From IMG/VR virus record IMGVR_UViG_3300009095_000068, positions 1-24,854 of that record: a stretch of DNA of 24,854 nucleotides; one strand, written 5' to 3'. Source of the DNA: a virus. Lineage: Duplodnaviria > Caudoviricetes. A program made the position numbers and the translations under genes. The notes under the pieces were generated by a model. That model made no database searches. It saw nothing but the letters and a program-made list of their open reading frames with translations, and had not been told where the DNA came from. Below, in pieces: positions 1-24,854 of this stretch; positions within the stretch are counted from its first letter, which is position 1; each line of letters begins with the position of its first letter.

Positions 1-107
1 CCTCCTTCCCCCCGCCCCGCGTTGTTCAATCCGCCCCGCCGCGTGTCCGCGACGGGTGCGGTCCGTCACCGCCTTAAGCCCGCACCCGCCAGGAACCACG
101 TGGTCGG

Positions 108-368
108 TCATACAACACCCTGATTCGCCAAGATGCCGGCGGCGAGAGAGATGGCAGCGAGGTACGCCACCAGCGCCACGAAGTGTTCCGCCTCCTTTTC
201 GCCGGAATTGATTTCGTTGCTGAGCCACTCGATTGTTTCGGCCGGATGGATCTTCAAGGCCTCGACGATGCGTGCGACGGGAAGGATGTCGTCGCCCATG
301 CTTGCAACGATGTCTCGGATATTCGCCTTCGCTTGGTCGATCGCGGCCACTGCTTGCAGTGTGTTCAC
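108..368 (-). CDS. Hypothetical protein, 86 aa, hydrophobic C-terminus
   Basis: GTG start overlaps the upstream TGA (GTGA) and follows AGGAGG; MNTLQAVAAIDQAK...FVALVAYLAAISLAAGIL. Confidence 0.65.
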   Translation of the reverse strand: MNTLQAVAAIDQAKANIRDIVASMGDDILPVARIVEALKIHPAETIEWLSNEINSGEKEAEHFVALVAYLAAISLAAGILANQGVV

Positions 369-865
369 TCTGCACCTCCTGCCCCCACCCCCGCGCAGGC
401 GTCGCGGCCCGCGTCGGTGGGGGGGTCGTTGTTGATCGTCAGGGTGTGGTCGAAGTTGATGGCGTCGCCGCGGCGGAACCACCGGGCCGCCTCGACGCGG
501 ATCAGCACGGAGGTCAGCCCGTCATCCGTGAGCTGCGCCTGCCGCTCGCCAAACAGCCGAACCGCCGCGGAGTATGTCGCGTCCGTCATGACCACGATCT
601 GCGCGGCGTCGCGCAGGTACTGGTTCTGCCGGCGGAGCCGCGGCAGCCCGCCGACGATCCACGCCGGGCGGATCCAAAGGCGGTTGGGCTTTCGCTGCGT
701 CGTAAGGGCGACCCAGGCACTCCGGCCCTCGCACCGGCCGACACAGATGAACGGCCGAGTTTTGTCGGTGTTCGGCCCGGCTGGGTTCCAAGTGAGGAAC
801 GTGGACGCCGCGCGGAAGAACACCCGCGGGTCGAGGAACCGGATGGAGCCGGGGCGGATGCTCAC
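365..865 (-). CDS. Hypothetical protein, possible PemK/MazF-like fold
   Basis: GTGA coupling to the upstream ORF; motifs IRPGSIRFLD, DKTRPFICV and WVALTTQ resemble the PemK/MazF G-D/S-I, K-x-R-P and I/L-T-T/S motifs. Confidence 0.55.
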   Translation of the reverse strand: MSIRPGSIRFLDPRVFFRAASTFLTWNPAGPNTDKTRPFICVGRCEGRSAWVALTTQRKPNRLWIRPAWIVGGLPRLRRQNQYLRDAAQIVVMTDATYSAAVRLFGERQAQLTDDGLTSVLIRVEAARWFRRGDAINFDHTLTINNDPPTDAGRDACAGVGAGGAE

Positions 866-1062
866 GCCGACCTCCCCGGCAGCAGCCGCCGCAGAAGGTC
901 CTCGATGGCCCCTGGGGGGCCGGAAAAACTCACCGTGACCGTCGCCCCGTCATCCCAAGCGTCCGCCCCGGCCGCACGAGCCTTTTGGGGATCGCTGGCG
1001 ATTGCCACACCGCCGAGGGCGGCCGGGGCGGACGCTTGGGATGACGGGGCAGTTGATCCCAT
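862..1062 (-). CDS. Small hypothetical protein (66 aa) whose coding region contains the 32-bp inverted repeat
   Basis: ATG at 1062 lies just downstream of the leftward promoter candidate; stop overlaps the next start; weak RBS, so start uncertain. Confidence 0.4.
   Translation of the reverse strand: MGSTAPSSQASAPAALGGVAIASDPQKARAAGADAWDDGATVTVSFSGPPGAIEDLLRRLLPGRSA
944..1050. repeat. Perfect 32-bp inverted repeat with 43-bp spacer
   Basis: GCCCCGTCATCCCAAGCGTCCGCCCCGGCCGC (944-975) is the exact reverse complement of 1019-1050. Confidence 0.97.
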
Positions 1063-1089
1063 GCTCGTCTCGCTTGGTGTGGCGTTCTC

Positions 1090-1129
1090 ATTCTCGGCCT
1101 GCTGATAGCGTGGAGTCAAGGTTTTTTTC
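1090..1129 (-). promoter_or_regulatory. Candidate leftward sigma70 promoter
   Basis: Minus strand: A-tract, TTGACT (1119-1114), 18 nt, GAGAAT (1095-1090), in an AT-rich patch of a very GC-rich sequence. Confidence 0.5.
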
Positions 1130-1147
1130 TCAGATTCTGGCAAGTTT

Positions 1148-1180
1148 TTCGGAAGTCGTTGCAAGGCCACAACTTACGAA
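1148..1180. promoter_or_regulatory. Imperfect palindrome between the divergent promoters (operator- or recombinase-core-like)
   Basis: TTCGGAAGTCGT-N9-ACAACTTACGAA; arms match at 10/12 positions. Confidence 0.55.
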
Positions 1181-1238
1181 GAGGGGTCGGGGTCGATGTA
1201 CCGCTCCGGGGACGGCGGCGTGCGAAAACACCCATACG

Positions 1239-1283
1239 AACAGGGTGCGAACTAACGGGGTGCGAACTAACGGGGTGCGAACA
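1239..1283 (+). repeat. Three tandem 15-bp repeats AACRGGGTGCGAACW
   Basis: AACAGGGTGCGAACT / AACGGGGTGCGAACT / AACGGGGTGCGAACA; further GTGCGAA copies near 1220 and 1803. Confidence 0.93.
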
Positions 1284-1357
1284 CGGGGTTGAGGCAAAAA
1301 AAATTTTCGACAACGCTTGACAGCCCTTGCGACGATGATAAGATATGAGTGTGAGGG
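1267..1357 (+). promoter_or_regulatory. Strong sigma70-type promoter block, copy 1
   Basis: A-tract UP-like element, TTGACA (1317-1322), 16 nt, extended -10 TGnTAAGAT (1336-1344); block repeated at 1795-1883. Confidence 0.85.
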
Positions 1358-1410
1358 ACGGGGGCTCGACCGCGGAGGGCAGCGGAGTACCCCTCACGGA
1401 GGTATAGACC

Positions 1411-1710
1411 ATGACGACGACGATCAAGACCGTGCCGGTGACCACCGCTTCCAACAGCAACCCGGTCGCCTTCGTGCAGCCCAGGCACGCCGAGGGCACG
1501 GGCGACGCCTACCCCGATGGGTACTTCCCGGGCCGGTGGCTGGAGCCCGCGATCTACCGCCCGTTCAGCGACGACGAGGGGATCACTTGCCTCCGCGTCT
1601 ACCAGTTCAGCGATTCCGAGGTGGCCGAGGCGGGCGAGGATGCGTCGGCCCTGCCCTGGGATGACGATCACGTGATCGAGATCCGCATCACCGTCGGCCG
1701 CTTCGCCTGA
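1411..1710 (+). CDS. Array ORF1, small acidic hypothetical protein (99 aa)
   Basis: GGAGGT RBS, ATG, GC3-rich codons; first gene after promoter copy 1. Confidence 0.85.
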   Translation: MTTTIKTVPVTTASNSNPVAFVQPRHAEGTGDAYPDGYFPGRWLEPAIYRPFSDDEGITCLRVYQFSDSEVAEAGEDASALPWDDDHVIEIRITVGRFA

Positions 1711-1724
1711 CACTCATGGACCTT

Positions 1725-1790
1725 GGGGGGCTCCCCCCGCTCCCCTGCCGGGGAGCGTGAGGGATTCGCACCGTGGTGGGGACTTGGGAG
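1725..1790 (+). repeat. Inter-ORF spacer element, copy 1
   Basis: GGGGGGCTCCC, hairpin CGCTCCCC-TGCC-GGGGAGCG, then GGGATTCGCACC. Confidence 0.8.
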
Positions 1791-1794
1791 GACG

Positions 1795-1883
1795 CTAACA
1801 GGGTGCGAACACGGGTTGCGGCAAAAAAAGTTTCGACAACGCTTGACAACGCTTGCGACGATGCTAAGATATGGGTGTGGGGG
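1795..1883 (+). promoter_or_regulatory. Strong sigma70-type promoter block, copy 2
   Basis: About 10 differences from 1267-1357 over about 90 bp; TTGACA (1843-1848), 16 nt, TGcTAAGAT (1862-1870). Confidence 0.85.
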
Positions 1884-1902
1884 GAGAGACAGGAGGCCGA
1901 CC

Positions 1903-2196
1903 ATGAGGACCGACACCTACCGCGACTACGACCGGATCATCCCCGAGTCCGATCTGGAGCTTGCCGTCCTTGCGGAACTGGTGCGGCATCGGCTCCGCGT
2001 GTGGGAGGAGGGGACCGGCCGCACGCTCACCATCGTCTCAGTAGAGGACGGCATCTGGACCGTCGAAGAGAGCGAGGCGGACGCGTGGGCGATCGTCAAC
2101 GGCATCGACACCAAGCTGATCGGGGTCTGGCACGTTTGGGTCGCGCCGCCCAAAGGGGGACGCCCCGTCTCGGTGGAGAAGTGGCGGCTGGACTGA
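1903..2196 (+). CDS. Array ORF2, hypothetical protein (97 aa)
   Basis: AGGAGG RBS before ATG 1903 (MRTDTYRDYD...); follows promoter copy 2. Confidence 0.85.
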   Translation: MRTDTYRDYDRIIPESDLELAVLAELVRHRLRVWEEGTGRTLTIVSVEDGIWTVEESEADAWAIVNGIDTKLIGVWHVWVAPPKGGRPVSVEKWRLD

Positions 2197-2205
2197 CAAC
2201 GGCCC

Positions 2206-2285
2206 GGGCGGCTCCCGCGCCCGCCCCTTGATTGGGGCGGGGCGCGATTCGCACCGGGGGAGGGGGGTAAGGGAGACTGACGATG
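2206..2285 (+). repeat. Inter-ORF spacer element, copy 2
   Basis: GGCTCCC, hairpin CCGCCCC-TTGATT-GGGGCGG, GATTCGCACCGGGGG, G-run, AAGGGAGACTGACGATG. Confidence 0.85.
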
Positions 2286-2636
2286 ACCACCACGAAGAAG
2301 CTTCCCAGCGGGTTCTTTCGCCGTTACAACCCCAAGGCCGGTCGAGTCGTGAGCGTCACGCTTGATGGTGAGCGGGTCTGGGTCGCCTCGTTCTCTCGCG
2401 GCGTCTTGGTGGCTGAGGCAGCGTTCGCGCCCAAGCTCGGTGGGAACTTTGTCGATGCCCATGCCCGGACGATGGCCCTTTACGACACCGACCTCGGCCC
2501 GGCTTTCGTGAGCTTCGACCCCGCATGGCCGGAGGGGTCATGGGCCTTCTTTACCGACAGGAAGGCCGCGCACGATGCGTTTCAGACCACGGTTGCGGAC
2601 TACGAGAGGGCCGCGACATGGAAGCGGATCAAGTGA
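2283..2636 (+). CDS. Array ORF3, hypothetical protein (117 aa)
   Basis: GGGAG RBS supplied by the spacer; globular-looking composition. Confidence 0.85.
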   Translation: MTTTKKLPSGFFRRYNPKAGRVVSVTLDGERVWVASFSRGVLVAEAAFAPKLGGNFVDAHARTMALYDTDLGPAFVSFDPAWPEGSWAFFTDRKAAHDAFQTTVADYERAATWKRIK

Positions 2637-2644
2637 CCACCGCC

Positions 2645-2696
2645 GCTCCCCGGCCGCCCCTCACCGGGGGCGGTCGGGATTCGACCGGGGGCGGGG
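2645..2696 (+). repeat. Inter-ORF spacer element, copy 3
   Basis: GCTCCC, hairpin CCCGGCCGCCCC-TCACCG-GGGGCGGTCGGG, GATTCG-ACCGGGGG. Confidence 0.85.
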
Positions 2697-2748
2697 CTCG
2701 GATCGCCGGAGGGCAGGCGATGGGAGCCCGAAAGGGCAGGAGTAAGCC

Positions 2749-3132
2749 ATGACGACTGAAACGACCAGGTTGGACGGCGCGACTATCCGGGTTCTCACGC
2801 CGGATGGACGGGTGCTCTCGTGCCCGATGCTGCCCAATGACCCCGATTTGGACGTAAGCATCATCGAGGACGAGGAGACGGGCGAGGAGCGGGAGGAGCC
2901 TAGTCAGTTGTCCCGCATCGCCCGTTCCATCCGGGAGGGACTGGGCCTGGGACAGGATGATATCGCCGAGGCTCATGTTGTGGGTGAGCCCAATCCCGCC
3001 AGCATGGCCGAATGGGAGCGCGAACACGGCATCCTGTACGTCTGGGTGCCCAACAGTTATGAGATGCCGAGGACCGCCCGCCGCATCGCCGGGTTGGCGT
3101 GGGCCGATCCGATCCCCGCCCCGCGTGCCTGA
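2749..3132 (+). CDS. Array ORF4, acidic hypothetical protein (127 aa)
   Basis: AGGAG RBS; acidic tract IIEDEETGEEREEP. Confidence 0.85.
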   Translation: MTTETTRLDGATIRVLTPDGRVLSCPMLPNDPDLDVSIIEDEETGEEREEPSQLSRIARSIREGLGLGQDDIAEAHVVGEPNPASMAEWEREHGILYVWVPNSYEMPRTARRIAGLAWADPIPAPRA

Positions 3133-3162
3133 TACTCCTGCCCCCCGGGTGCCCGCGGCCCT

Positions 3163-3241
3163 GGGGGGCTCCCGGCCGCCCCTCGACGGGGGCGGCCGGG
3201 ATTCGCACTGGGGGGCGGGGGGGCAAGGGAGACCGACGATG
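3163..3241 (+). repeat. Inter-ORF spacer element, copy 4
   Basis: GGGGGGCTCCC, hairpin TCCCGGCCGCCCC-TCGACG-GGGGCGGCCGGGA, GATTCGCACTGGGGG, AAGGGAGACCGACGATG. Confidence 0.88.
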
Positions 3242-3502
3242 GCACGCCGCAAACATCCAAAGCCGACATACGAGGCTCACGTAGCCTCGCGCCGCGCTCG
3301 CGGGCTGGAGCCGATGACCGAAGAGGAGTGGCTGGCTAACCGCGAACGGGTGGCAGAGTCCCGCAGGCGACGCCGCGCTGCGCTGCGCGCGAAGCGGGAG
3401 ATGGAGATCTGCCCCACGTGCGGCGGCTACAAGTGGCATTCGATGATTGACCCGATTGTCACCCTCGATGACGACGAGCGCTGCGACTGCGGCCGCGACT
3501 GA
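3239..3502 (+). CDS. Array ORF5, basic protein with putative Zn site (87 aa)
   Basis: ATG supplied by the spacer (MARRKHPKP...); Arg-rich helix followed by CPTC...CDC. Confidence 0.8.
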   Translation: MARRKHPKPTYEAHVASRRARGLEPMTEEEWLANRERVAESRRRRRAALRAKREMEICPTCGGYKWHSMIDPIVTLDDDERCDCGRD

Positions 3503-3511
3503 ATCTCTTGC

Positions 3512-3544
3512 GGCGGGGTCGGGGGACAAAGGAGACCGACGATG
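3512..3544 (+). repeat. Spacer element 3' half (RBS part only), copy 5
   Basis: GGGGGACAAAGGAGACCGACGATG matches the end of copies 2 and 4. Confidence 0.75.
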
Positions 3545-3573
3545 ATCAGGACAACCCGAAGAGGAGGATGTAC

Positions 3574-3786
3574 TTGAACACAACGTCTAATACGCCGCAA
3601 CCCGTCCACCTCACCACGAAGGAAGTCGCCGCCAAGCTCGGCCTCAGCCCAGCCCGCGTGCGGCAACTCGCCGCGGAGCGGGGGGTGCGGCCCGCGGTGG
3701 ACCACCCACGGTTCAAGCTCTGGCACCCGAGTGTGGTTCGCCTGCTCTCGAAGCGGCGGCCGGTGGGGCGGCCGAGGGGGACGTAG
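3574..3786 (+). CDS. Small HTH DNA-binding protein (excisionase/MerR-like HTH) with a C-terminal AT-hook-like motif
   Basis: LTTKEVAAKLGLSPARVRQLA is HTH-like; RRPVGRPRG tail; TTG 3574 is 6 nt after GAGGAGG (alternative ATG at 3568). Confidence 0.85.
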   Translation: MNTTSNTPQPVHLTTKEVAAKLGLSPARVRQLAAERGVRPAVDHPRFKLWHPSVVRLLSKRRPVGRPRGT

Positions 3787-3954
3787 CGGCGCACGAAAGA
3801 GGGCCGGTGCGCCGTCGTCACCAGTTCCAGGCCCTATGCGTAACAGTCCCCGGCGGCGCGCAAGTGAACTCGCCACCGAGTCTGCCGGGGGGAGATGATC
3901 TCACGGCCATGCAGCCCGGAGCGTACTCCGGGTGATAGATACGAGGAGAACGCC

Positions 3955-4515
3955 ATGCTCACCGCCGCTTCGCTTACAGTTGTGTCGCTCGCCCTGACCG
4001 CCGGCCCCGGCACCACGCCCCCGCCCGGCCCCAACCACAGCATCCGCCCCTGCCCGGTCGGCCTGGTCCTGCACGATCCGCAACTCTACTGCGTGATCGA
4101 GGTCTCCCCGGCTGTCGAGCCCACCTTCCAGCCGGCGGGAACGGCGGTCGCGTGGGAATCCGGGGCGATGACCGACCATCTCTGGGTCTGGCGTGGCACC
4201 CTCATCGGCGCGCCCTACTCCGGTCACACGGTCGTGGTCCTGCCCATCGGGTCCGTCGTCAGCATCCACCTGTACCACGGCGGGGGCCTCTTCGGCCCCT
4301 GGCTCAACGGCCACACCGTCCGCCCCGGCGACTGGAACCTCGACGGCCAGGTCAACTCGGACGACATCAGCGCGTTCCTCCGCGACTGGCTGGCCGCCCC
4401 TCAGGGCCCACAGGCGATCACCGGCGAGGTGAGCCGCGGCGACTACAACCTCGATGGCTGGGTCAACCCCGCCGACATCTCGGCGTTCATCGAAGGCTGG
4501 CTGGGGTCGGTGTAG
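3955..4515 (+). CDS. Putative exported protein with C-terminal dockerin-like (EF-hand-like) repeat pair
   Basis: AGGAG RBS; hydrophobic N-terminus and Pro-rich linker; GDWNLDGQVNSDDISAFLRDW and GDYNLDGWVNPADISAFIEGW. Confidence 0.85.
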   Translation: MLTAASLTVVSLALTAGPGTTPPPGPNHSIRPCPVGLVLHDPQLYCVIEVSPAVEPTFQPAGTAVAWESGAMTDHLWVWRGTLIGAPYSGHTVVVLPIGSVVSIHLYHGGGLFGPWLNGHTVRPGDWNLDGQVNSDDISAFLRDWLAAPQGPQAITGEVSRGDYNLDGWVNPADISAFIEGWLGSV

Positions 4516-4970
4516 CCGTCACCACTTCCCCTGCGGGCGCCGCTCGGACGCCCCCGCACCCGCTTCCACCACCGCCGCGCGGCCATCCACGCGAGCTTGC
4601 CCTGCAACCAGCAGCCGCACCCCATCAGCGGACCCGACAGCGGCGGGGGCTCCGGCCCCTCGTGCCACTCGGTCAGCCTGCGCCGCCACCACCGCCAGCG
4701 GTACAGCCACGCGAGCGGGGCCGGGTGCCCGATCCAATCGAGCCCGGCCCACTCGACAACGCCGTCCTTATCCGGGTGGCGACCGATCGGGCACGACGCC
4801 ATCCCCCGCACCGTCAGGTACACCGGCTGGCCGGAGACCCCGCAGTTGGTCGCCGGGTCCTCGGGGTGGCCGGTCAGGTGCGGGCACGTGACGCACATGA
4901 ACGCGAGCGTCCTCAGCCGCCGGGAGTCCGGCGGGGCCACGCTCTTTCGATTCCCACACCCGCACGCCAT
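4443..4970 (-). CDS. Cys/Trp/Arg-rich hypothetical protein (175 aa), last gene of the tail operon
   Basis: GAGGAGG RBS; MACGCG start, CVTC, CPIG and GCGC motifs; 3' end overlaps the convergent dockerin gene by 73 bp. Confidence 0.7.
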   Translation of the reverse strand: MACGCGNRKSVAPPDSRRLRTLAFMCVTCPHLTGHPEDPATNCGVSGQPVYLTVRGMASCPIGRHPDKDGVVEWAGLDWIGHPAPLAWLYRWRWWRRRLTEWHEGPEPPPLSGPLMGCGCWLQGKLAWMAARRWWKRVRGRPSGARRGSGDGYTDPSQPSMNAEMSAGLTQPSRL

Positions 4971-4980
4971 CTCGCCCTCC

Positions 4981-6237
4981 TCACAGCAGGCCGAACACGC
5001 CACCGCCTGGGCTCCCACCGCCCGGCCCCGGCGTCGGCGCGGTCGCCAGGTCGGGGCAATCCCCGCCTGACGCCACCCCGTGCCCGCAGACCTCGAACTG
5101 GCACCCCGCGCAGCACCCCTCGTCGTCCTCGCCGCCGGAGTATACCAGGCTCTCCACCTCGGTTCGCCACTCCCGCCGGTTGCACCCGCAGCTCATGCCG
5201 TCGGGGGCGGACGCGACGGACCATATCTCCTCCGTCCGCTCCCGACGCGAGCCCGTGCAGGACCGCGTGACGGTCTCCCGGATGTCCCATCCGCCGCGGG
5301 GGCAGCCGAAGGGCGGCGAGGGGTCGTCCCACCGGTCGCGGTACTCGTACGGTCGGTTGTACGCCGGGTCGATCGCATCGGCGTAGGACCGGCACACGAC
5401 CCGCACCTCCGGCTCGGATTCCTCGACGACGCGCTCGCACTCAGCGTTGTGCGTCACCGTCCGCTGCACAGTGATGACCTCTTTGCAGACGGTGCAGCCG
5501 TCGCGGGACACCTCCGCCCCGGTGTGGCTCACGGCCTCAAAGAACGTCACCCCGTCCATGCAGTCGCTGCATGGACGGTTGCTGCAGCACCACGAGTCCC
5601 CGACGTTGATGAGGTAGTCGTGGCCGCTGCGGTACGTCGCGGTGTAGTTCCAATCGAAGGTCGCCTTGCCGTCGTCGTCGAGTTCCCCGCCGCAGCAGAA
5701 GATGGCCCCGTTGCACGGCCCCTCATCCGTCTGGTGGGGGATGAGCACCGCGCACACGCGGTCGCACCCGCACTCGCACTCCCCGCCCCCGTCGGGCACG
5801 CAGTCGGGGTGGTCGCAGGCGGCGACGCCCTGGGGCACGCCAAGGCACTCGATCGTGATGCCCTCCATCGCCCCAGGCTCGGCGATGATCGCCCCCGGGG
5901 GGATCTGGTCGCGCCGGCGGGTGATGCCCAGCGAGCCTGCGGGCATGTAGCACCACGACCGGCCGGCCCGAGTGACCTTCACCGCCCCGCCGTACTTGCA
6001 GATGGCGGGCTGGTAGGTGCCCGGCGGCACGCCCGGCGGCAGGGGGCACACCACGTCGTCGCGGACCCAGATCGGCGGGTGGTCCGGCCAGCAGCCGACG
6101 TAGTTGCACGGGCAGAGGAGGCAGTAGAGGTGGTCGGGCGCGGGGCCGCACTCGTTCACCACCCGCGTCCCGTCGCGCGAGACCAGCACCCGGTCGCCCG
6201 TCGTCGGGTCGAGGATGAGCCGGCTGAGCTGGGTCAT
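4981..6237 (-). CDS. Cysteine-rich putative tail tip / receptor-binding protein (418 aa)
   Basis: TGATG coupling to the upstream gene; about 35 Cys by hand count; located at the distal end of the tail module. Confidence 0.75.
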   Translation of the reverse strand: MTQLSRLILDPTTGDRVLVSRDGTRVVNECGPAPDHLYCLLCPCNYVGCWPDHPPIWVRDDVVCPLPPGVPPGTYQPAICKYGGAVKVTRAGRSWCYMPAGSLGITRRRDQIPPGAIIAEPGAMEGITIECLGVPQGVAACDHPDCVPDGGGECECGCDRVCAVLIPHQTDEGPCNGAIFCCGGELDDDGKATFDWNYTATYRSGHDYLINVGDSWCCSNRPCSDCMDGVTFFEAVSHTGAEVSRDGCTVCKEVITVQRTVTHNAECERVVEESEPEVRVVCRSYADAIDPAYNRPYEYRDRWDDPSPPFGCPRGGWDIRETVTRSCTGSRRERTEEIWSVASAPDGMSCGCNRREWRTEVESLVYSGGEDDEGCCAGCQFEVCGHGVASGGDCPDLATAPTPGPGGGSPGGGVFGLL

Positions 6238-7742: not shown

Positions 7743-8605
7743 GGCGTCATCCCCGGCAGGTCGGCCCACCCCTCGGGGTCGTCGTAGTCGAAGGGCACGA
7801 AGAGTTCAAACACCGGCGGGGACGATGCGGACCCATCGGCCGCGCCGACAAGGATGACCTCGTGGTACGGCGGGCGCGACCACGAGGCATCCGGCGCGCC
7901 GGGGATCAGCGAGCCCCGCGGCGGGGGCAGCCGGGTGGTGCTGAAGAGGCTGTACTGGATCGGCGGGGTGCCCGGGTCCTCGCGCCAGTGGTAGTGCACC
8001 TCCCACTTGCCGGGCTCCGTCTCGGCGTAGTCGCCGCCCTCGAAGTGATACCACTTGGAGTTGATGCGATGGAGCTTGTTGGTCTGCTGCCGCAGAGCAT
8101 CGACCAGCCGGGGCACGTCCGACGCGGAGATGTTCGTGCGCCACGAGATGCGGTGGATGTTCACCGGCGTCCGCTGCACGTCGAACTTCCAGCCGACGAC
8201 CTCCGCCGGCGGGTTTCCCTCGCCCTGCTGAACGAGCGTCTTGGCCTGATAGGCGAAGGGCAGCTCGATGAACTCGGTGGTGCACGAGCCGGACCACGCG
8301 CCGTAGCCGGGGGCCATGCGGTCCACCGGCGAGGGCATGACGAACCTGCGGTCGTTGGAGTACAGCGCGGTCACGTCGTAGACCGAGCCGTTGGCGGCGG
8401 TCTGGTATGCGTCCAGCCGCATCCCCTCCCACTCGGAGTTGTACGCCGGGAGCCCCACACCTTCGTCGTTGAGGATGGACGTTGGGTCGGCCATGATCTG
8501 CGTGCGCGCGTAGTTCCAGACGCGGAACACGCGCGAGCCGCGGCGGCGGCCCTCGGCGTCGCACTGTACGTTCTGTGTGGAGTCGAGTAGTTCAACCCAG
8601 CTCAA
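7739..8605 (-). CDS. Putative distal-tail/hub-region protein (288 aa)
   Basis: TTGA coupling and AAGGAGG RBS; immediately downstream of the tape measure; function from synteny only. Confidence 0.7.
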   Translation of the reverse strand: MSWVELLDSTQNVQCDAEGRRRGSRVFRVWNYARTQIMADPTSILNDEGVGLPAYNSEWEGMRLDAYQTAANGSVYDVTALYSNDRRFVMPSPVDRMAPGYGAWSGSCTTEFIELPFAYQAKTLVQQGEGNPPAEVVGWKFDVQRTPVNIHRISWRTNISASDVPRLVDALRQQTNKLHRINSKWYHFEGGDYAETEPGKWEVHYHWREDPGTPPIQYSLFSTTRLPPPRGSLIPGAPDASWSRPPYHEVILVGAADGSASSPPVFELFVPFDYDDPEGWADLPGMTP

Positions 8606-9678
8606 AGACCACCCCTCCTTCCGGCCCTAAGGTCTACGAGCTGCGCGATGCGGCGCACATCCGCGCCGATCCGCTCGGTGATGTTCTCGGTGAACTGGCG
8701 CTGCTGACGGGCGAAGTCGTCGAAGGCCGACTGCATGGCCTTGCGCATCATCTCCGCGGCCTTCTCGGCGGTTTCGAGTTCGGCCTTGCGGCGGGCCTCC
8801 TGTTCCTCGGCGAAGGCTCTACGCTGGTCCTCGGCGTTCGCCCGGATGAGGCGGGCGAGCTTGGTCAGAATGTCAAGCTCTCGCTCGGTCTGCGCCCGGT
8901 GCCACTCGTCCTCAAGTTCCTTGAGTGCCCGCTTCTCCTCGGCGTTGATCCGGTCGATGCCCTCAAGGCGGGCGATGGTCATGGCCTCGACGCGCTTTTC
9001 GAGCGCGTCAAAGGTCCGGTTCTGCGCCTCCTGCTCGGCCTTCGCCCTCTCCTCGGCGGCCTTCTTCGCGGCCTCGGCCTCGGCGGCGGCCCTCTCTTCC
9101 GCTTGCCGAAGTGCGAGTGCGCGAGACTGCTCGCTCAGCCCGCGGGCCGTGCTCTCCAGTTGCGCAATTTCCTCCCGAATCTGCTTTTCGCGCCGGCTAA
9201 GGAGCCCGAGAATGGGGTGCTCTTGCTTGAACGCAAGCTCGCTATTGAGTTCAAGCAACCTCTTATGCACGGCTTCGAGGTTGGCTGCCGCGTTGGAGGC
9301 TCCGCCCGACAGGCTGTTGGTGTACTCCATTGCCAGCAGTGCGCCGTCACGTGTCAGTTCATTGATCTTGGACACGACGCCGACCACTGACGCCACCGCA
9401 CCGGCAATCGCACCAGCAATACCCGTTACCCGGCTCATCGCCGAGCGCATGTCGTTGACCGAGGAGGTGGCGTCTTTGACCGACGACGCTACCGACGACA
9501 TGGACGAGGTGGTCTTGGCTCCGGCCGAGGCGGCCGCATTGCCGGCACGCCCCATTGCCTCTGCGGTTTTGTCCGCCTCCTTCCGGACCTGCCCCATCCC
9601 CTCGACAGCGCCGGAGACATTTGCCCCGATCTCGACCGATAACTCGGCAACTGCGTCTTTGTTGCGGGCTTTAGCCAT
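8602..9678 (-). CDS. Tail tape measure protein, short (358 aa)
   Basis: N-terminal VAELSVEIGANVSG motif, Ala-rich helical and coiled-coil body, hydrophobic GIAGAIAGAVASVVGVV segment; follows the tail tube. Confidence 0.8.
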   Translation of the reverse strand: MAKARNKDAVAELSVEIGANVSGAVEGMGQVRKEADKTAEAMGRAGNAAASAGAKTTSSMSSVASSVKDATSSVNDMRSAMSRVTGIAGAIAGAVASVVGVVSKINELTRDGALLAMEYTNSLSGGASNAAANLEAVHKRLLELNSELAFKQEHPILGLLSRREKQIREEIAQLESTARGLSEQSRALALRQAEERAAAEAEAAKKAAEERAKAEQEAQNRTFDALEKRVEAMTIARLEGIDRINAEEKRALKELEDEWHRAQTERELDILTKLARLIRANAEDQRRAFAEEQEARRKAELETAEKAAEMMRKAMQSAFDDFARQQRQFTENITERIGADVRRIAQLVDLRAGRRGGL

Positions 9679-9750
9679 CAGGTCTTGCGTCCGTCGGATT
9701 CGTTGGGTATGGTGTGGGGGCGGGTGGGCGATGTGGAGGATCGCCAAGTG

Positions 9751-21483: not shown

Positions 21484-21759
21484 ATGAAAACCCTCTGGTT
21501 CCGCCAGGTGTACGTACCGCAGATCATCGCCGGGACAAAGACCCACACGGCGCGACGCCCATCGTCGCGCCTGCCGCGAGCGGGAGAGACTGTCGCTCTG
21601 AGTGTTGGTCCGCGCCCCCCATTCGCTCGTGCTCGGGTGACCTCGGTCGAGACGCGAGAGTGGGACGAGCTGTCCCCGGCAAAGCGGTCTGAGTTGCAGG
21701 CTCTCGGGATTGACTCAGGACCGATATGCTGGATTGAGTTCGTCGTTCTGCCGGCATGA
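21484..21759 (+). CDS. ASCH-domain protein (YqfB-like, 91 aa)
   Basis: F....IIAGTKTHTAR (GxKTxTxR), GETV, FARARVTSV and WIEF match the ASCH pattern. Confidence 0.85.
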   Translation: MKTLWFRQVYVPQIIAGTKTHTARRPSSRLPRAGETVALSVGPRPPFARARVTSVETREWDELSPAKRSELQALGIDSGPICWIEFVVLPA

Positions 21760-22801
21760 ACTCGAACGACGCGGTGCTTCGTCCGGCCGAGCCTCGGTAT
21801 CCACAGGAGTGCGGAGCGCGGCCGGTCAGCCGTTGCCATTGCATCCGCCACAGAGGCGATTTAGCCAGCCCCCGGATGAGGCGCGGGTGGCTGGTCACGA
21901 TGGATATGCGATGCGACTCGGCTTCACGCGCCGCGACCGCGTTCAACAGCCGCAGCCCAAGCCCCACCCCCTGATAGTCCGGCAGCACCACCAGGCGGTG
22001 TATCCGCCTCCTGCCTTTCCAACCGAAGGATGGCATCGTGGCGCAGAAGGCGACTGGGCGACCGTCGTGGCATGCCGCGTAGCACATCGCGGACGGGTGC
22101 AGGTCCGCGTCTAGATAGTGATGACGCCCAAACACTCGCCACAGACTCCGGTCGCACCTTGAGACCTCGAAGTTGATCGGCGGACGTTGAAGACGCCCCC
22201 ATGACGTTTCGCCGGTCGCCATGTCCACCACCCAATCCGGCTCCAACCACTCAAGCACGTCGTAGTGACAGGTGACGGCGACGAATTTCTTTCCGGCGGA
22301 TCGGACCATTCGGGCCACGCACATCGACGCGATCTTGGCCACCTGCCGATCAACCACGCTTGTGAACTCATCGAACACTGCTATGGGTGCGGGCCGGAGC
22401 AGGCACTTGGCCAGGTCACAACGGAACCGCTCGCCATTGCTCAGTGCGGCGTACGGACGCAACCACGCCGGCGGGCTCGCAAAGCCGACTGCGGCCAGGG
22501 TGTCGGTGATGGTCTTGGCAGAGAGGTCCGACGGGAAGGCATCGACTACCGCCCGGTCTGCTGGCCACTCATCCCCTGCGTAGAGCACGTCGCCATACGC
22601 CGCCCGGGCAACGGTAGACTTTCCCGACCCGCTTGGTCCCACAATGGCGCCGATGCTCCATTCCTCGTCCGCCGATGGCACGTCAACCGTGAACGCCTCG
22701 CGGCTTTCGCTGCCGATGCGAAGATCGAACAGGCCGGCAACCTGCTGCACCCGAAAACTGTTGACAATTGGGGTGGTGTTTACAACGTCAACACGTGGCA
22801 T
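21524..22801 (-). CDS. ABC ATPase - GNAT acetyltransferase fusion (425 aa; last ~78 aa antisense to ASCH)
   Basis: GPSGSGKST, LSNGE, AVFDEF, VTCH, then the acetyl-CoA motif RLVVLPDYQGVGLG; no TM partner gene. Confidence 0.92.
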   Translation of the reverse strand: MPRVDVVNTTPIVNSFRVQQVAGLFDLRIGSESREAFTVDVPSADEEWSIGAIVGPSGSGKSTVARAAYGDVLYAGDEWPADRAVVDAFPSDLSAKTITDTLAAVGFASPPAWLRPYAALSNGERFRCDLAKCLLRPAPIAVFDEFTSVVDRQVAKIASMCVARMVRSAGKKFVAVTCHYDVLEWLEPDWVVDMATGETSWGRLQRPPINFEVSRCDRSLWRVFGRHHYLDADLHPSAMCYAACHDGRPVAFCATMPSFGWKGRRRIHRLVVLPDYQGVGLGLRLLNAVAAREAESHRISIVTSHPRLIRGLAKSPLWRMQWQRLTGRAPHSCGYRGSAGRSTASFEFMPAERRTQSSISVLSQSREPATQTALPGTARPTLASRPRSPEHERMGGADQHSERQSLPLAAGATMGVAPCGSLSRR

Positions 22802-23391
22802 TTGAGCCCCCTCTGCTCCATCTCTTCATAAATCTCTCGCTGCTGCGTTTCCGTCTCGCACTCGATAAGCACACCCAGCTGTTCGGTGAGCTGACGCCCC
22901 TCCTCCGGCTCAGCCGGCGTCAGCCCGTCCAGCAGGTCCGCCAACTCCGCGTCCGTGAACCCCGTATCGGGCAGGACGTCCTTCGGCAGCGTGTCCAGAA
23001 GGCTCGCCAGCGTCTCGTCGTCCCATGTCGCCAGTTCCGCCGTCCGGTTGTCCGCGATGGCGAACGCCACCGCCTCCACCGACGTGTCGTCCACCACCAC
23101 GGCGGCGATGTGCGTCCAGCCCAGGCTCTTGGCCGCCGCCAGCCGGCCGTTTCCGGCCCGGACCACCATCCCTTCCCGCTGCACCACGATGGGCAGCCGC
23201 TGCCCCCACCGGGACAGCGACGCGGCGATGGCGTCGAGGTTGCGCTGGTCGTGCCTGCGGGCGTTGGACGCGTCCGGGGTCAGATCGGCGATGGGAACAG
23301 CCAGGTGCCGAAGCGGCTCCGCGATGTAGTCGAGGCGCAGGGCCGCCCCTCCCTGTGCGGGTACTGGATTGTTAGCATGCTTTTCCATCAT
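22780..23391 (-). CDS. ParB/Srx N-terminal domain protein (203 aa)
   Basis: IADLTPDASNARRH...IAASLSRWGQRLPIVV...AGNGRLAAA...IADNRTAELATWD; ATGA coupling. Confidence 0.9.
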   Translation of the reverse strand: MMEKHANNPVPAQGGAALRLDYIAEPLRHLAVPIADLTPDASNARRHDQRNLDAIAASLSRWGQRLPIVVQREGMVVRAGNGRLAAAKSLGWTHIAAVVVDDTSVEAVAFAIADNRTAELATWDDETLASLLDTLPKDVLPDTGFTDAELADLLDGLTPAEPEEGRQLTEQLGVLIECETETQQREIYEEMEQRGLKCHVLTL

Positions 23392-24854
23392 CGTCCCCTC
23401 CCCCTCCCCAGGGCGCGGGCGCGGAAGCCCATGCCCACGACCGGCCCCGGCTCCACCGCCCGCTCCGTCACCGTCACCGTCACGATATGCGAGCCCGTCA
23501 GCCCCCCCGAGTCCGTCGCCGCCGCCCGCACCTCGTACTGCCCCGTCCGCGGCGGCGTCCACCCGACGCTCGCGCCGGTGCCGATGATGAAGAACGGGTC
23601 CGCGCTCCCGGCGGCCCGCAGGCCCCACTCGATCGAGTCCGACAGGTCCCCGTCCTCAACGTCGGTCGCCGTGGCAGTCAGCGTCGCCTCCTCGCCGACG
23701 TAGATGGTGTCGCCGTCGGTGGGGCTGGTGATCGCCACCTCCGGGGCGTAGTTGAGGTGCAGCGTGACCTCCACCCCGTCGATCGCCGCCTCCCCGATGA
23801 CCGCGTCGTCGGTGTTGCTCACCACGATCCCGATGCGGAGGTTGTCGAGCAGCGCCTTGGTGAGCGTCACCCCCCAGGCGTCCGCCGCCCCGCCGACCTC
23901 CACCAACGCCAGCGAGCCGGCGGGCATCGCCACCTGCCGCGCGTCGCCGACCGGCGTGACGCCGTCGTAGAGCCGCACCGAGGCGAGCATGGCCGCGACG
24001 CCTGCACCCAAGTCCCGCGAGGCGGCGTGCATGGAGACGGTGACCCCCAGCAGCTCGGCGTCCGCCGGGATCGGCTCATCCCACACCACCGCAGCGCTCC
24101 CCCGCAGCACATCGCTCTCATAGCCGGGGTCGAGCTCGCACACCGCCGGCAGCCCGTCCAGGTCCGAGGCCTCCCCCGGGTTGAACCACGAGTAGACGCC
24201 CCCGAGGCTCACGAAGTTCGCATGCCTCCCGGTGATCGTGCTCACGTCGCTACCTCCTCCCCCCGTCTCCGCCGCCGCCTCGATCAGCTCCCGCGCCCAG
24301 TCCACCGGCTCGCCGCCGCTGAACACCCAGCCCCCGGTCCACGGGTCCACGTCGATCAGGTCGTAGCTGTGGCCGACCGATGCGAGGTTCATCAGCGAGG
24401 ACACCGCCGCCGCCTCCCCCGACGCCGGCGCGGCGAACTCCATCCGCGTGAGGATTTCCGTCCAGTGCGGCGCGCCGGCGTCGCCGCCGCCCACCGAGAC
24501 GTTGCAGACCATCGCCGTGCCGTTCCACGCGACGCTGACCGTCCCCGGATGCTCCCGGATCCAGCTCCAGGGGCTGGCGGGGTTGGGCGTGCCGCCGTAG
24601 GTGCGAGCGTCGATCGCGGCATTGATCGCCTCCTCCAGACGCTCCGCCGCCTCGTCCAGGTCCTCGACGCCGGTGAAGTCCGCCGTCACGTCGTACCAGG
24701 TCCACCGCAGCCGCACGCGCAGCGACACCTCCCCGGCCGCCGACCACACCTCCGGGTCGGTCGTCACCGCCGGGACCGTCCAGTCTCGGTACGTGATGTG
24801 ACGCTGGGTTAGCCAGTGGCTGCCATCGGCGACCCACACGCACGCCCCGTCGTA
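23388..24854 (-). CDS. Large protein, 5'-truncated by the window edge, with a beta-sandwich domain and a C-terminal Ig-like (Big/PKD) domain
   Basis: Frame stays open to the edge (YDGACVWVADG...); APEVAITSPTDG...LTATATDVEDGDLSDSIEW...ATDSGG...VTVTV. Confidence 0.85.
   Translation of the reverse strand, partial: YDGACVWVADGSHWLTQRHITYRDWTVPAVTTDPEVWSAAGEVSLRVRLRWTWYDVTADFTGVEDLDEAAERLEEAINAAIDARTYGGTPNPASPWSWIREHPGTVSVAWNGTAMVCNVSVGGGDAGAPHWTEILTRMEFAAPASGEAAAVSSLMNLASVGHSYDLIDVDPWTGGWVFSGGEPVDWARELIEAAAETGGGGSDVSTITGRHANFVSLGGVYSWFNPGEASDLDGLPAVCELDPGYESDVLRGSAAVVWDEPIPADAELLGVTVSMHAASRDLGAGVAAMLASVRLYDGVTPVGDARQVAMPAGSLALVEVGGAADAWGVTLTKALLDNLRIGIVVSNTDDAVIGEAAIDGVEVTLHLNYAPEVAITSPTDGDTIYVGEEATLTATATDVEDGDLSDSIEWGLRAAGSADPFFIIGTGASVGWTPPRTGQYEVRAAATDSGGLTGSHIVTVTVTERAVEPGPVVGMGFRARALGRGRGR

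Follow-up and report, generated by a model that had tools for sequence, protein, structure and literature searches.

Positions 1244-3786 of the virus record IMGVR_UViG_3300009095_000068 hold, on the plus strand, an array of five small open reading frames (ORFs) that are separated by copies of a single hairpin-bearing spacer, preceded by duplicated promoters and closed by a predicted helix-turn-helix (HTH) gene. Judged by contigs assembled from sequencing runs of other samples, the cassette array is real and actively varying: in runs of four other studies the spacers and the promoter persist while gene content differs, which supports the exchangeability of cassettes proposed in a first-pass annotation. 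On balance we favor the reading that this is the variable array, likely an early operon, of a tailed phage, in which every gene runs up to a folded spacer whose likely role is to protect or process the transcript and to provide a ribosome site for the gene that follows, and in which genes are gained, lost and replaced, likely by ordinary homologous recombination.

The window analyzed is the whole record (24,854 bp, estimated to be 32% complete), and by its gene complement it is a tailed-phage contig of HK97 type, since scans with profile libraries place terminase, portal, protease, HK97-type capsid, neck and probable tail genes on the minus strand. The array lies beyond the tail end of this late block and in the opposite orientation; its transcription would therefore run towards the late genes and away from a divergent, leftward promoter-like site detected by promoter scan on the minus strand (TTGACT-18-GAGAAT, 1119-1090).

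The spacer and the genes it separates

Four full copies and one half copy of the spacer had been described, and all are present. The hairpins begin at 1731, 2212, 2646 and 3169, and all six pairs of copies beat 200 of 200 shuffles; the half copy matches S2 and S4 only, through the part that carries the ribosome site. The core consists of CTCCC, a GC stem of 12-13 bp with a loop of 4-6 nucleotides (nt), then GATTCG(C)AC and a G-rich arm, and a pattern derived from the copies, and hence written after the fact, occurs four times in the window and at most once in 300 shuffles. All four hairpins have the same orientation, all follow stop codons, and none occurs elsewhere in the 24.9-kb contig. The copies differ in their accessory parts. 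S1 (1711-1795, hairpin core 1731-1772) is without a ribosome site and leads into promoter P2 instead; S2 (2197-2282) comprises the hairpin, GATTCGCAC, the G-rich arm and a ribosome site; S3 (2637-2748) has its hairpin from 2646 and a leader segment; S4 (3133-3238) has a C-rich arm, an extra hairpin, the core hairpin from 3169, GATTCGCAC, the G-rich arm and a ribosome site; and the half spacer S5 (3503-3541) is the ribosome-site part only, at a place where relatives have a full spacer. The ribosome site AAGG(G)AGAC(C/T)GACGATG is common to S2, S4 and S5, and S3 has another.

S3 (z -2.2) and S4 (z -3.2) are the only copies that clearly fold better than shuffles. Stem pairs 5, 7 and 8, counted from the loop, vary on both sides across the four copies (one as G-U), and such paired changes are suggestive only of a conserved structure. 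Neither strand has a U-tract at the spacers, a terminator scan called none of the four hairpins, and a promoter scan of positions 1-6000 found no promoter in S2, S3 or S4. Rfam returned three sub-threshold matches only. A likeness to a reversed tRNA T-loop was dropped because no tRNA was found, and an origin from repetitive extragenic palindromic elements was dropped by eye because GGAG stands on the wrong side relative to the consensus.

The five cargo genes, of 87-127 amino acids (aa), are all present as annotated and are unrelated to one another: none of the ten pairs stands clearly above shuffles at the DNA level (the best pair, 9 of 200), and blastp gives no pair at E<1. ORF1 (1411-1710, 99 aa, isoelectric point (pI) 4.35), ORF2 (1903-2196, 97 aa, pI 4.87, with six Trp) and ORF4 (2749-3132, 127 aa, pI 4.46) are acidic orphans; ORF3 (2283-2636, 117 aa) is basic, with a weak lead to a WGR-like fold that is under the bar for naming and a predicted structure at pLDDT 43; and ORF5 (3239-3502, 87 aa) has an Arg-rich N-terminal part and four Cys in its C-terminal part that could form a zinc site. 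Homologue searches with ORF3 and ORF4 returned nothing beyond their own clusters, and exact cluster look-ups alone, supplemented for ORF1 by an atlas search, gave no named relative of ORF1, ORF2 or ORF5. All five genes have good ribosome sites and a GC content at third codon positions (0.78-0.92) similar to that of the late genes. That all five end in TGA had been singled out; it is true but not remarkable, as 14 of 23 other genes checked do likewise and the chance of five in five is about 0.08.

Two mini-ORFs accompany the array. One of 10 codons (2720-2752, in the leader segment of S3) overlaps the start of ORF4 as ATGA, and one of 11 codons (3542-3577, plus strand) overlaps the start of the HTH gene as TTGA. 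Both contain the ribosome site of the following gene and resemble a natural coupled leader.

The array opens with three copies of GGTGCGAA at 15-bp spacing (1244-1281, by motif count), followed by promoter P1 (1297-1357), in which an A-tract precedes TTGACA (1317), 16 nt and TG-TAAGAT (to 1344), and an imperfect 10-bp direct repeat spans the -35 element. Promoter P2, found by promoter scan and repeat search, lies with a fourth GGTGCGAA copy (1802-1809) at 1802-1883 (TTGACA at 1843, TAAGAT to 1870), and here ACAACGCTTG recurs with a 10-bp period over the -35. That the front of the array carries two near-identical consensus promoters is thus upheld: both are sigma70-type TTGACA-16-TAAGAT promoters within a 61-nt repeat of 90% identity. 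Three promoter-like sites were found in positions 1-6000 against 0.2 expected, and P1 and P2 are the only ones on the plus strand. GGTGCGAA, a motif picked by eye, has 6 matches against 1.28 expected, a count reached in none of 100 shuffles, and its reverse form occurs in S1 and S2.

An HTH_17/excisionase-like gene (3568-3786; 72 aa from ATG 3568 or 70 aa from TTG 3574), a predicted regulator, does close the array, though the identification is weak (HTH_17 at 21.1 bits, under the cut-off of 27; phrog_597 at E 2e-5, with further weak excisionase and directionality-factor matches). It has one relative, 91% identical, and a match was absent from the five distant phage records searched, which are fragments. 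Small MerR-like proteins bind direct repeats (PMC5859096, PMC12266134) and one of them represses genes in phage D29 (PMC12266134). By analogy with these proteins, to whose family it may belong, the predicted HTH protein probably represses P1 and P2.

Gene turnover in related contigs

In the read archive, words of the region recur in 24 runs from 16 studies. Eight of these runs were compared in detail, with related contigs matched at 85% likeness and the joints and loose ends being those among the matches listed; the other 16 have small shares and do not enter the comparison. Run X1, possibly the source sample, is not counted as independent of the window; because its contigs (1021-1955 and 1926-4700) tile the array without any difference, the assembly is sound, and one X1 contig continues about 8.8 kb beyond the right end of the window. 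Leaving X1 aside, close pieces of array genes, spacers or promoter occur in five DNA-type runs (X2 and X3, X4, X8, X9), which come from four studies. Two RNA runs, X15 and X19, cover only 3787-3870 and two 18-nt bits and have no bearing on expression of the array.

Differences in gene content occur along the length of the array. At its front, upstream DNA is joined straight to P2 in X9 (skip 545, side 88, depth 7.3) and in X2 (skip 556, side 47, depth 3.6), the joint falling inside the duplicated GGTGCGAAC segment; since ORF1 pieces are held by X2, X3, X4 and X8, the unit P1-ORF1-S1 is present in some genomes and absent from others. In the X9 record without this unit, the match ends 10 nt into ORF2 and 318 more letters follow. 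Further along, X2 passes from ORF3 and its spacer to an S5-type ribosome site and so omits ORF4 and ORF5 (skip 847, depth 16.7, side 40), and X2 and X3 have a spacer joined to the segment behind S3. A 3,386-nt contig of X9 (depth 44.7) has 695 foreign letters enclosed by two spacer copies. At the far end, X2 and X3 have a fuller spacer after ORF5, with a joint from 3491 to 2640 and loose ends at 3515 and 3519, and in X9 (record 14) the S5 site is linked to a spacer, with the HTH gene about 409 letters farther on than in the window, for which reason the mini-ORF at 3542-3577 is likely a deletion stump. Five gene starts that the window does not have follow spacer copies: MTKVTRIGVYG in X2, MATKK in X8, MGKYRIRLYNG in X3, and MLG and MPTG in X9. 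A fixed gene order with unconserved spacers is therefore not what the related contigs present, and the spacers themselves are likely the crossover points.

Elsewhere, no second array turned up in IMG/VR, JGI metagenomes, GTDB, GenBank phages and plasmids, whether scanned by pattern or by protein. The IMG/VR pattern matches (16, 47 and 4, all screened by script) were set aside as single copies without an array; five of the 47 were examined closely, and the majority resemble one coding-sequence coincidence. Of five loci from the JGI metagenomes, two are the window's own contig and three have no hairpin. There was no relevant match in 50,697 phage records and no capsid relative in GTDB. Thirteen distant phage loci have a capsid 41-56% identical, and when a model of the spacer (R1) was searched against 24 non-window loci, these distant phages included, nothing scored below E 0.3, all such records being fragments. 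Queries with the tail and dockerin-like genes found no relative in IMG/VR, and we found no paper on the spacer in the literature available as open-access text. Four related viral contigs (L086-L089) have in common an intergenic-looking stretch with several hairpins, unrelated to the window spacer.

How the array may work, and other explanations

In the mechanism that we favor, host RNA polymerase would start at P1 and P2 and continue through S2-S4, since the hairpins have no U-tract and the genes from ORF3 to the HTH gene no separate consensus promoter. The hairpins would act at the RNA level, as stabilizers or cleavage sites in the manner of the RNase III hairpins of T7 early mRNA; internal loops can limit RNase III to a single cut that leaves a protective 3' hairpin (PMC1540722). 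With a ribosome site in each spacer copy, a gene inserted between two of them would need no new signals for its expression. The 40-60 bp of shared sequence would also serve as a crossover patch, and a precedent for crossovers in short repeats exists in the promoter early stem-loops (PeSLs) of T4-type phages (PMC2839356). Repression of P1 and P2 would fall to the terminal HTH protein, acting at the 10-bp direct repeats that span the -35. The cargo would consist of host-takeover or counter-defence proteins under fast turnover, a role suggested by position and turnover. Orphan early proteins often include such factors. Of the exchangeable early-gene system originally proposed, exchange is seen in the related contigs, whereas early expression is suggested by promoters and orientation only.

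Several observations weigh against this mechanism. For S1 (z -0.2), S2 (z -1.5) and S5 (z +1.2), folding is not clearly superior to that of shuffled sequence, a covariation test would need more than four copies, and GATTCGCAC varies in relatives (GATTTGCAC, GATTACGAA, GATTGCGAA). E. coli RNase III is inhibited when certain stem positions are CG/GC pairs (PMC1540722). None of ORF1-5 has a family in Pfam, PHROGs, PADLOC or NCBIfam. The relatives are contig fragments with 30-40 foreign letters visible at most and no complete second array; the gene starting MATKK may be a diverged ORF3; and two contigs (X9 record 13, X8 record 29) carry spacers without a window gene and may not be of phage origin. 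Further joints are weaker (1889 to 2218, 2249 to 2688, 2767 to 3141 and 3203 to 3626; depth below 5 or side 29-33), and some changes lie off the spacers, namely the mini-ORF stump, the 1889-to-2218 joint and an ORF5 piece with a foreign 5' part. Finally, among the contigs examined, which drop rare forms, there was no circle and no reordering of two window genes.

If the spacers were expression signals only, multiplied by duplication or conversion, illegitimate recombination could turn the genes over and selection would keep those events that leave a spacer intact. We regard this as unlikely, while giving it more weight than any other alternative. The stump at 3542-3577, the half spacer and the 1889-to-2218 joint look like imprecise events, and the 48-nt core copies are just 67-83% identical to the reference copy. 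A core of this length and identity is short for efficient homologous recombination. Against such an explanation, most of the listed joints and loose ends fall within spacers or the promoter repeat (in a listing biased towards repeats), and the duplicated segment bounds the P1-ORF1 unit exactly.

A bolder extension of the cassette idea, which we advance as speculation with little confidence, is an integrase-free system with its own recognition code, in which the spacer and the GGTGCGAA/TTCGCACC motif would be read by the excisionase-like HTH protein or a host enzyme and direct the exchange of promoter-less genes; the population would then contain, in large number, new counter-defence proteins directed at an uncultured host. 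Slightly more doubtful still is that the hairpins are integron-like sites of site-specific recombination, with a recombinase outside the window or encoded by the host and with the HTH protein and GGTGCGAA/TTCGCACC as accessories. The spacer sequence drifts while its structure stays, the HTH gene has its weak excisionase and directionality-factor matches, the same 8-mer accompanies the promoter repeats, which contain one of the joints, and recurs in reverse in S1 and S2, and in a contig about 32% complete the recombinase may be encoded elsewhere. However, the 43 ORFs scanned include no recombinase, in agreement with the first-pass annotation, which saw no integrase; inspection by eye reveals no attC-type RYYYAAC or GTTRRRY ends; and the joints have no one common crossover base, while the motif differs in relatives.

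That the hairpins are U-less terminators or attenuators, grading expression along the array or needing an antiterminator, seems very unlikely to us. Their position would suit this function, since they begin 10-37 nt past a stop codon and S1 stands just before P2, and the stem-loops of PeSLs, often GGGG...CCCC, do terminate (PMC2839356); but neither strand supplies a U-tract, the terminator scan was negative for all four, and the genes from ORF3 to the HTH gene would be left without a consensus promoter. It is scarcely credible that the spacer derives from a host repeat or a miniature mobile element landing between phage genes: two related contigs have spacers but no window gene and the host may be missing from GTDB, yet there is no exact pattern match in plasmids or in 185,579 GTDB genomes (with a pattern that recovers two of the four window copies), and the four single-orientation copies behind stop codons are the only ones in the contig, a distribution unlike that of a scattered host repeat.

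Genomic surroundings and known systems

Just after the leftward promoter-like site lies a perfect 32-bp inverted repeat around 43 nt (944-975 / 1019-1050, z -9.8), possibly an invertible segment, a cruciform or a leader RNA; the X1 assembly breaks at both of its arms, and an X2 relative differs there. Next after the array comes a dockerin-like gene (3787-4515) with a structured 168-nt region upstream. Its match, below the cut-off, is to the GC-type dockerin, which is typical of Phycisphaerales; one protein-cluster member is filed under uncultured Thermomonospora, which could be a binning error. What lies upstream of position 3787 is different in X9 and in the RNA run X15, which makes the segment beginning there look like a module in its own right, perhaps derived from a host.

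On the minus strand, two cysteine-rich proteins without family matches (4443-6237) close the late block, the smaller of which has a relative at 38% identity in a distant relative, G001. In G001 the last late gene is likewise succeeded by small genes of unknown function, each with a ribosome site (L082 1-700, minus strand); unlike those of the window array, they run in the same direction as the late genes and are without a spacer. The presumed tape-measure gene (8602-9747, minus strand) has only about 380 codons, which suggests a very short tail. Directly upstream of the terminase genes (21524-23628, minus strand) are an ABC-ATPase/GNAT acetyltransferase fusion (phrog_11143) and a ParB-like gene, possibly a DNA-modification pair.

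Repeat-bounded shuffling of accessory genes has been described in large T4-type phages, where the units combine promoter and terminator. Here a small tailed phage appears to arrive at a like outcome, with turnover visible across several environments, and what appears to be new is shuffling of this type by promoter-less spacers of hairpin and ribosome site inside one operon. Orphan early proteins could be collected as a pool by way of the spacer, which may also serve as a natural insulated translation part for GC-rich hosts.

Among known systems, integron cassettes have attC ends, which are absent from the array by eye, and an integrase nearby, of which the 43 ORFs scanned in this contig, about 32% complete, gave no sign. 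Operons of anti-CRISPR (acr) and anti-CRISPR-associated (aca) genes resemble the array in having a strong promoter, small and often acidic orphan genes and a small HTH gene in last place. They are not defined by repeated spacers, however, and the array has no match to an Acr or Aca family, its HTH is HTH_17/MerR-like, and its candidate operator is a direct repeat. The early region of T7 has promoters A1-A3 and RNase III hairpins between its early genes, and the two arrangements have in common host promoters that are strong and repeated, several small early genes in one polycistron, and intergenic hairpins with internal loops. The stems of the window are, by contrast, very GC-rich, its hairpins are known from sequence alone, and the T7 hairpins are not known to act as shuffling repeats.

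The start-associated sequences (SAS) of cluster K mycobacteriophages and their extended form (ESAS) likewise combine a ribosome-site repeat longer than pairing with 16S rRNA needs, an imperfect inverted repeat upstream and unrelated genes (PMC3203893). Compared by eye, the SAS consensus GGGATAGGAGCCC with 17-bp arms differs from AAGGGAGACCGACGATG with a stem of 12-13 bp here; in that account SAS are also genome-wide and fixed to gene families, whereas the window has one tandem array whose genes change.

The closest likeness in outcome is to PeSLs (PMC2839356, PMC4122927). In these, a repeated intergenic GC stem-loop and a Shine-Dalgarno site flank orphan ORFs, and close relatives differ by insertion, deletion and replacement between units, as do the related contigs here; the P1/P2 duplication, too, behaves as a PeSL pair. 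The analogy drawn by the first-pass annotation thus holds for the turnover of genes between units and fails for anatomy: a PeSL unit has a sigma70-like promoter and a working terminator that isolate each cassette, but S2-S4 have neither promoter nor U-tract, and the window phage, with its HK97-type capsid and gp10-like, siphophage-like neck genes, is not T4-type. Because the spacers, unlike PeSLs, have no promoter and no U-tract, they are probably read-through hairpins for processing or stability, with translation starts that double as homology patches. The array works like PeSL shuffling, and it stands outside the PeSL class in its lack of per-unit promoters and in the type of phage that carries it.

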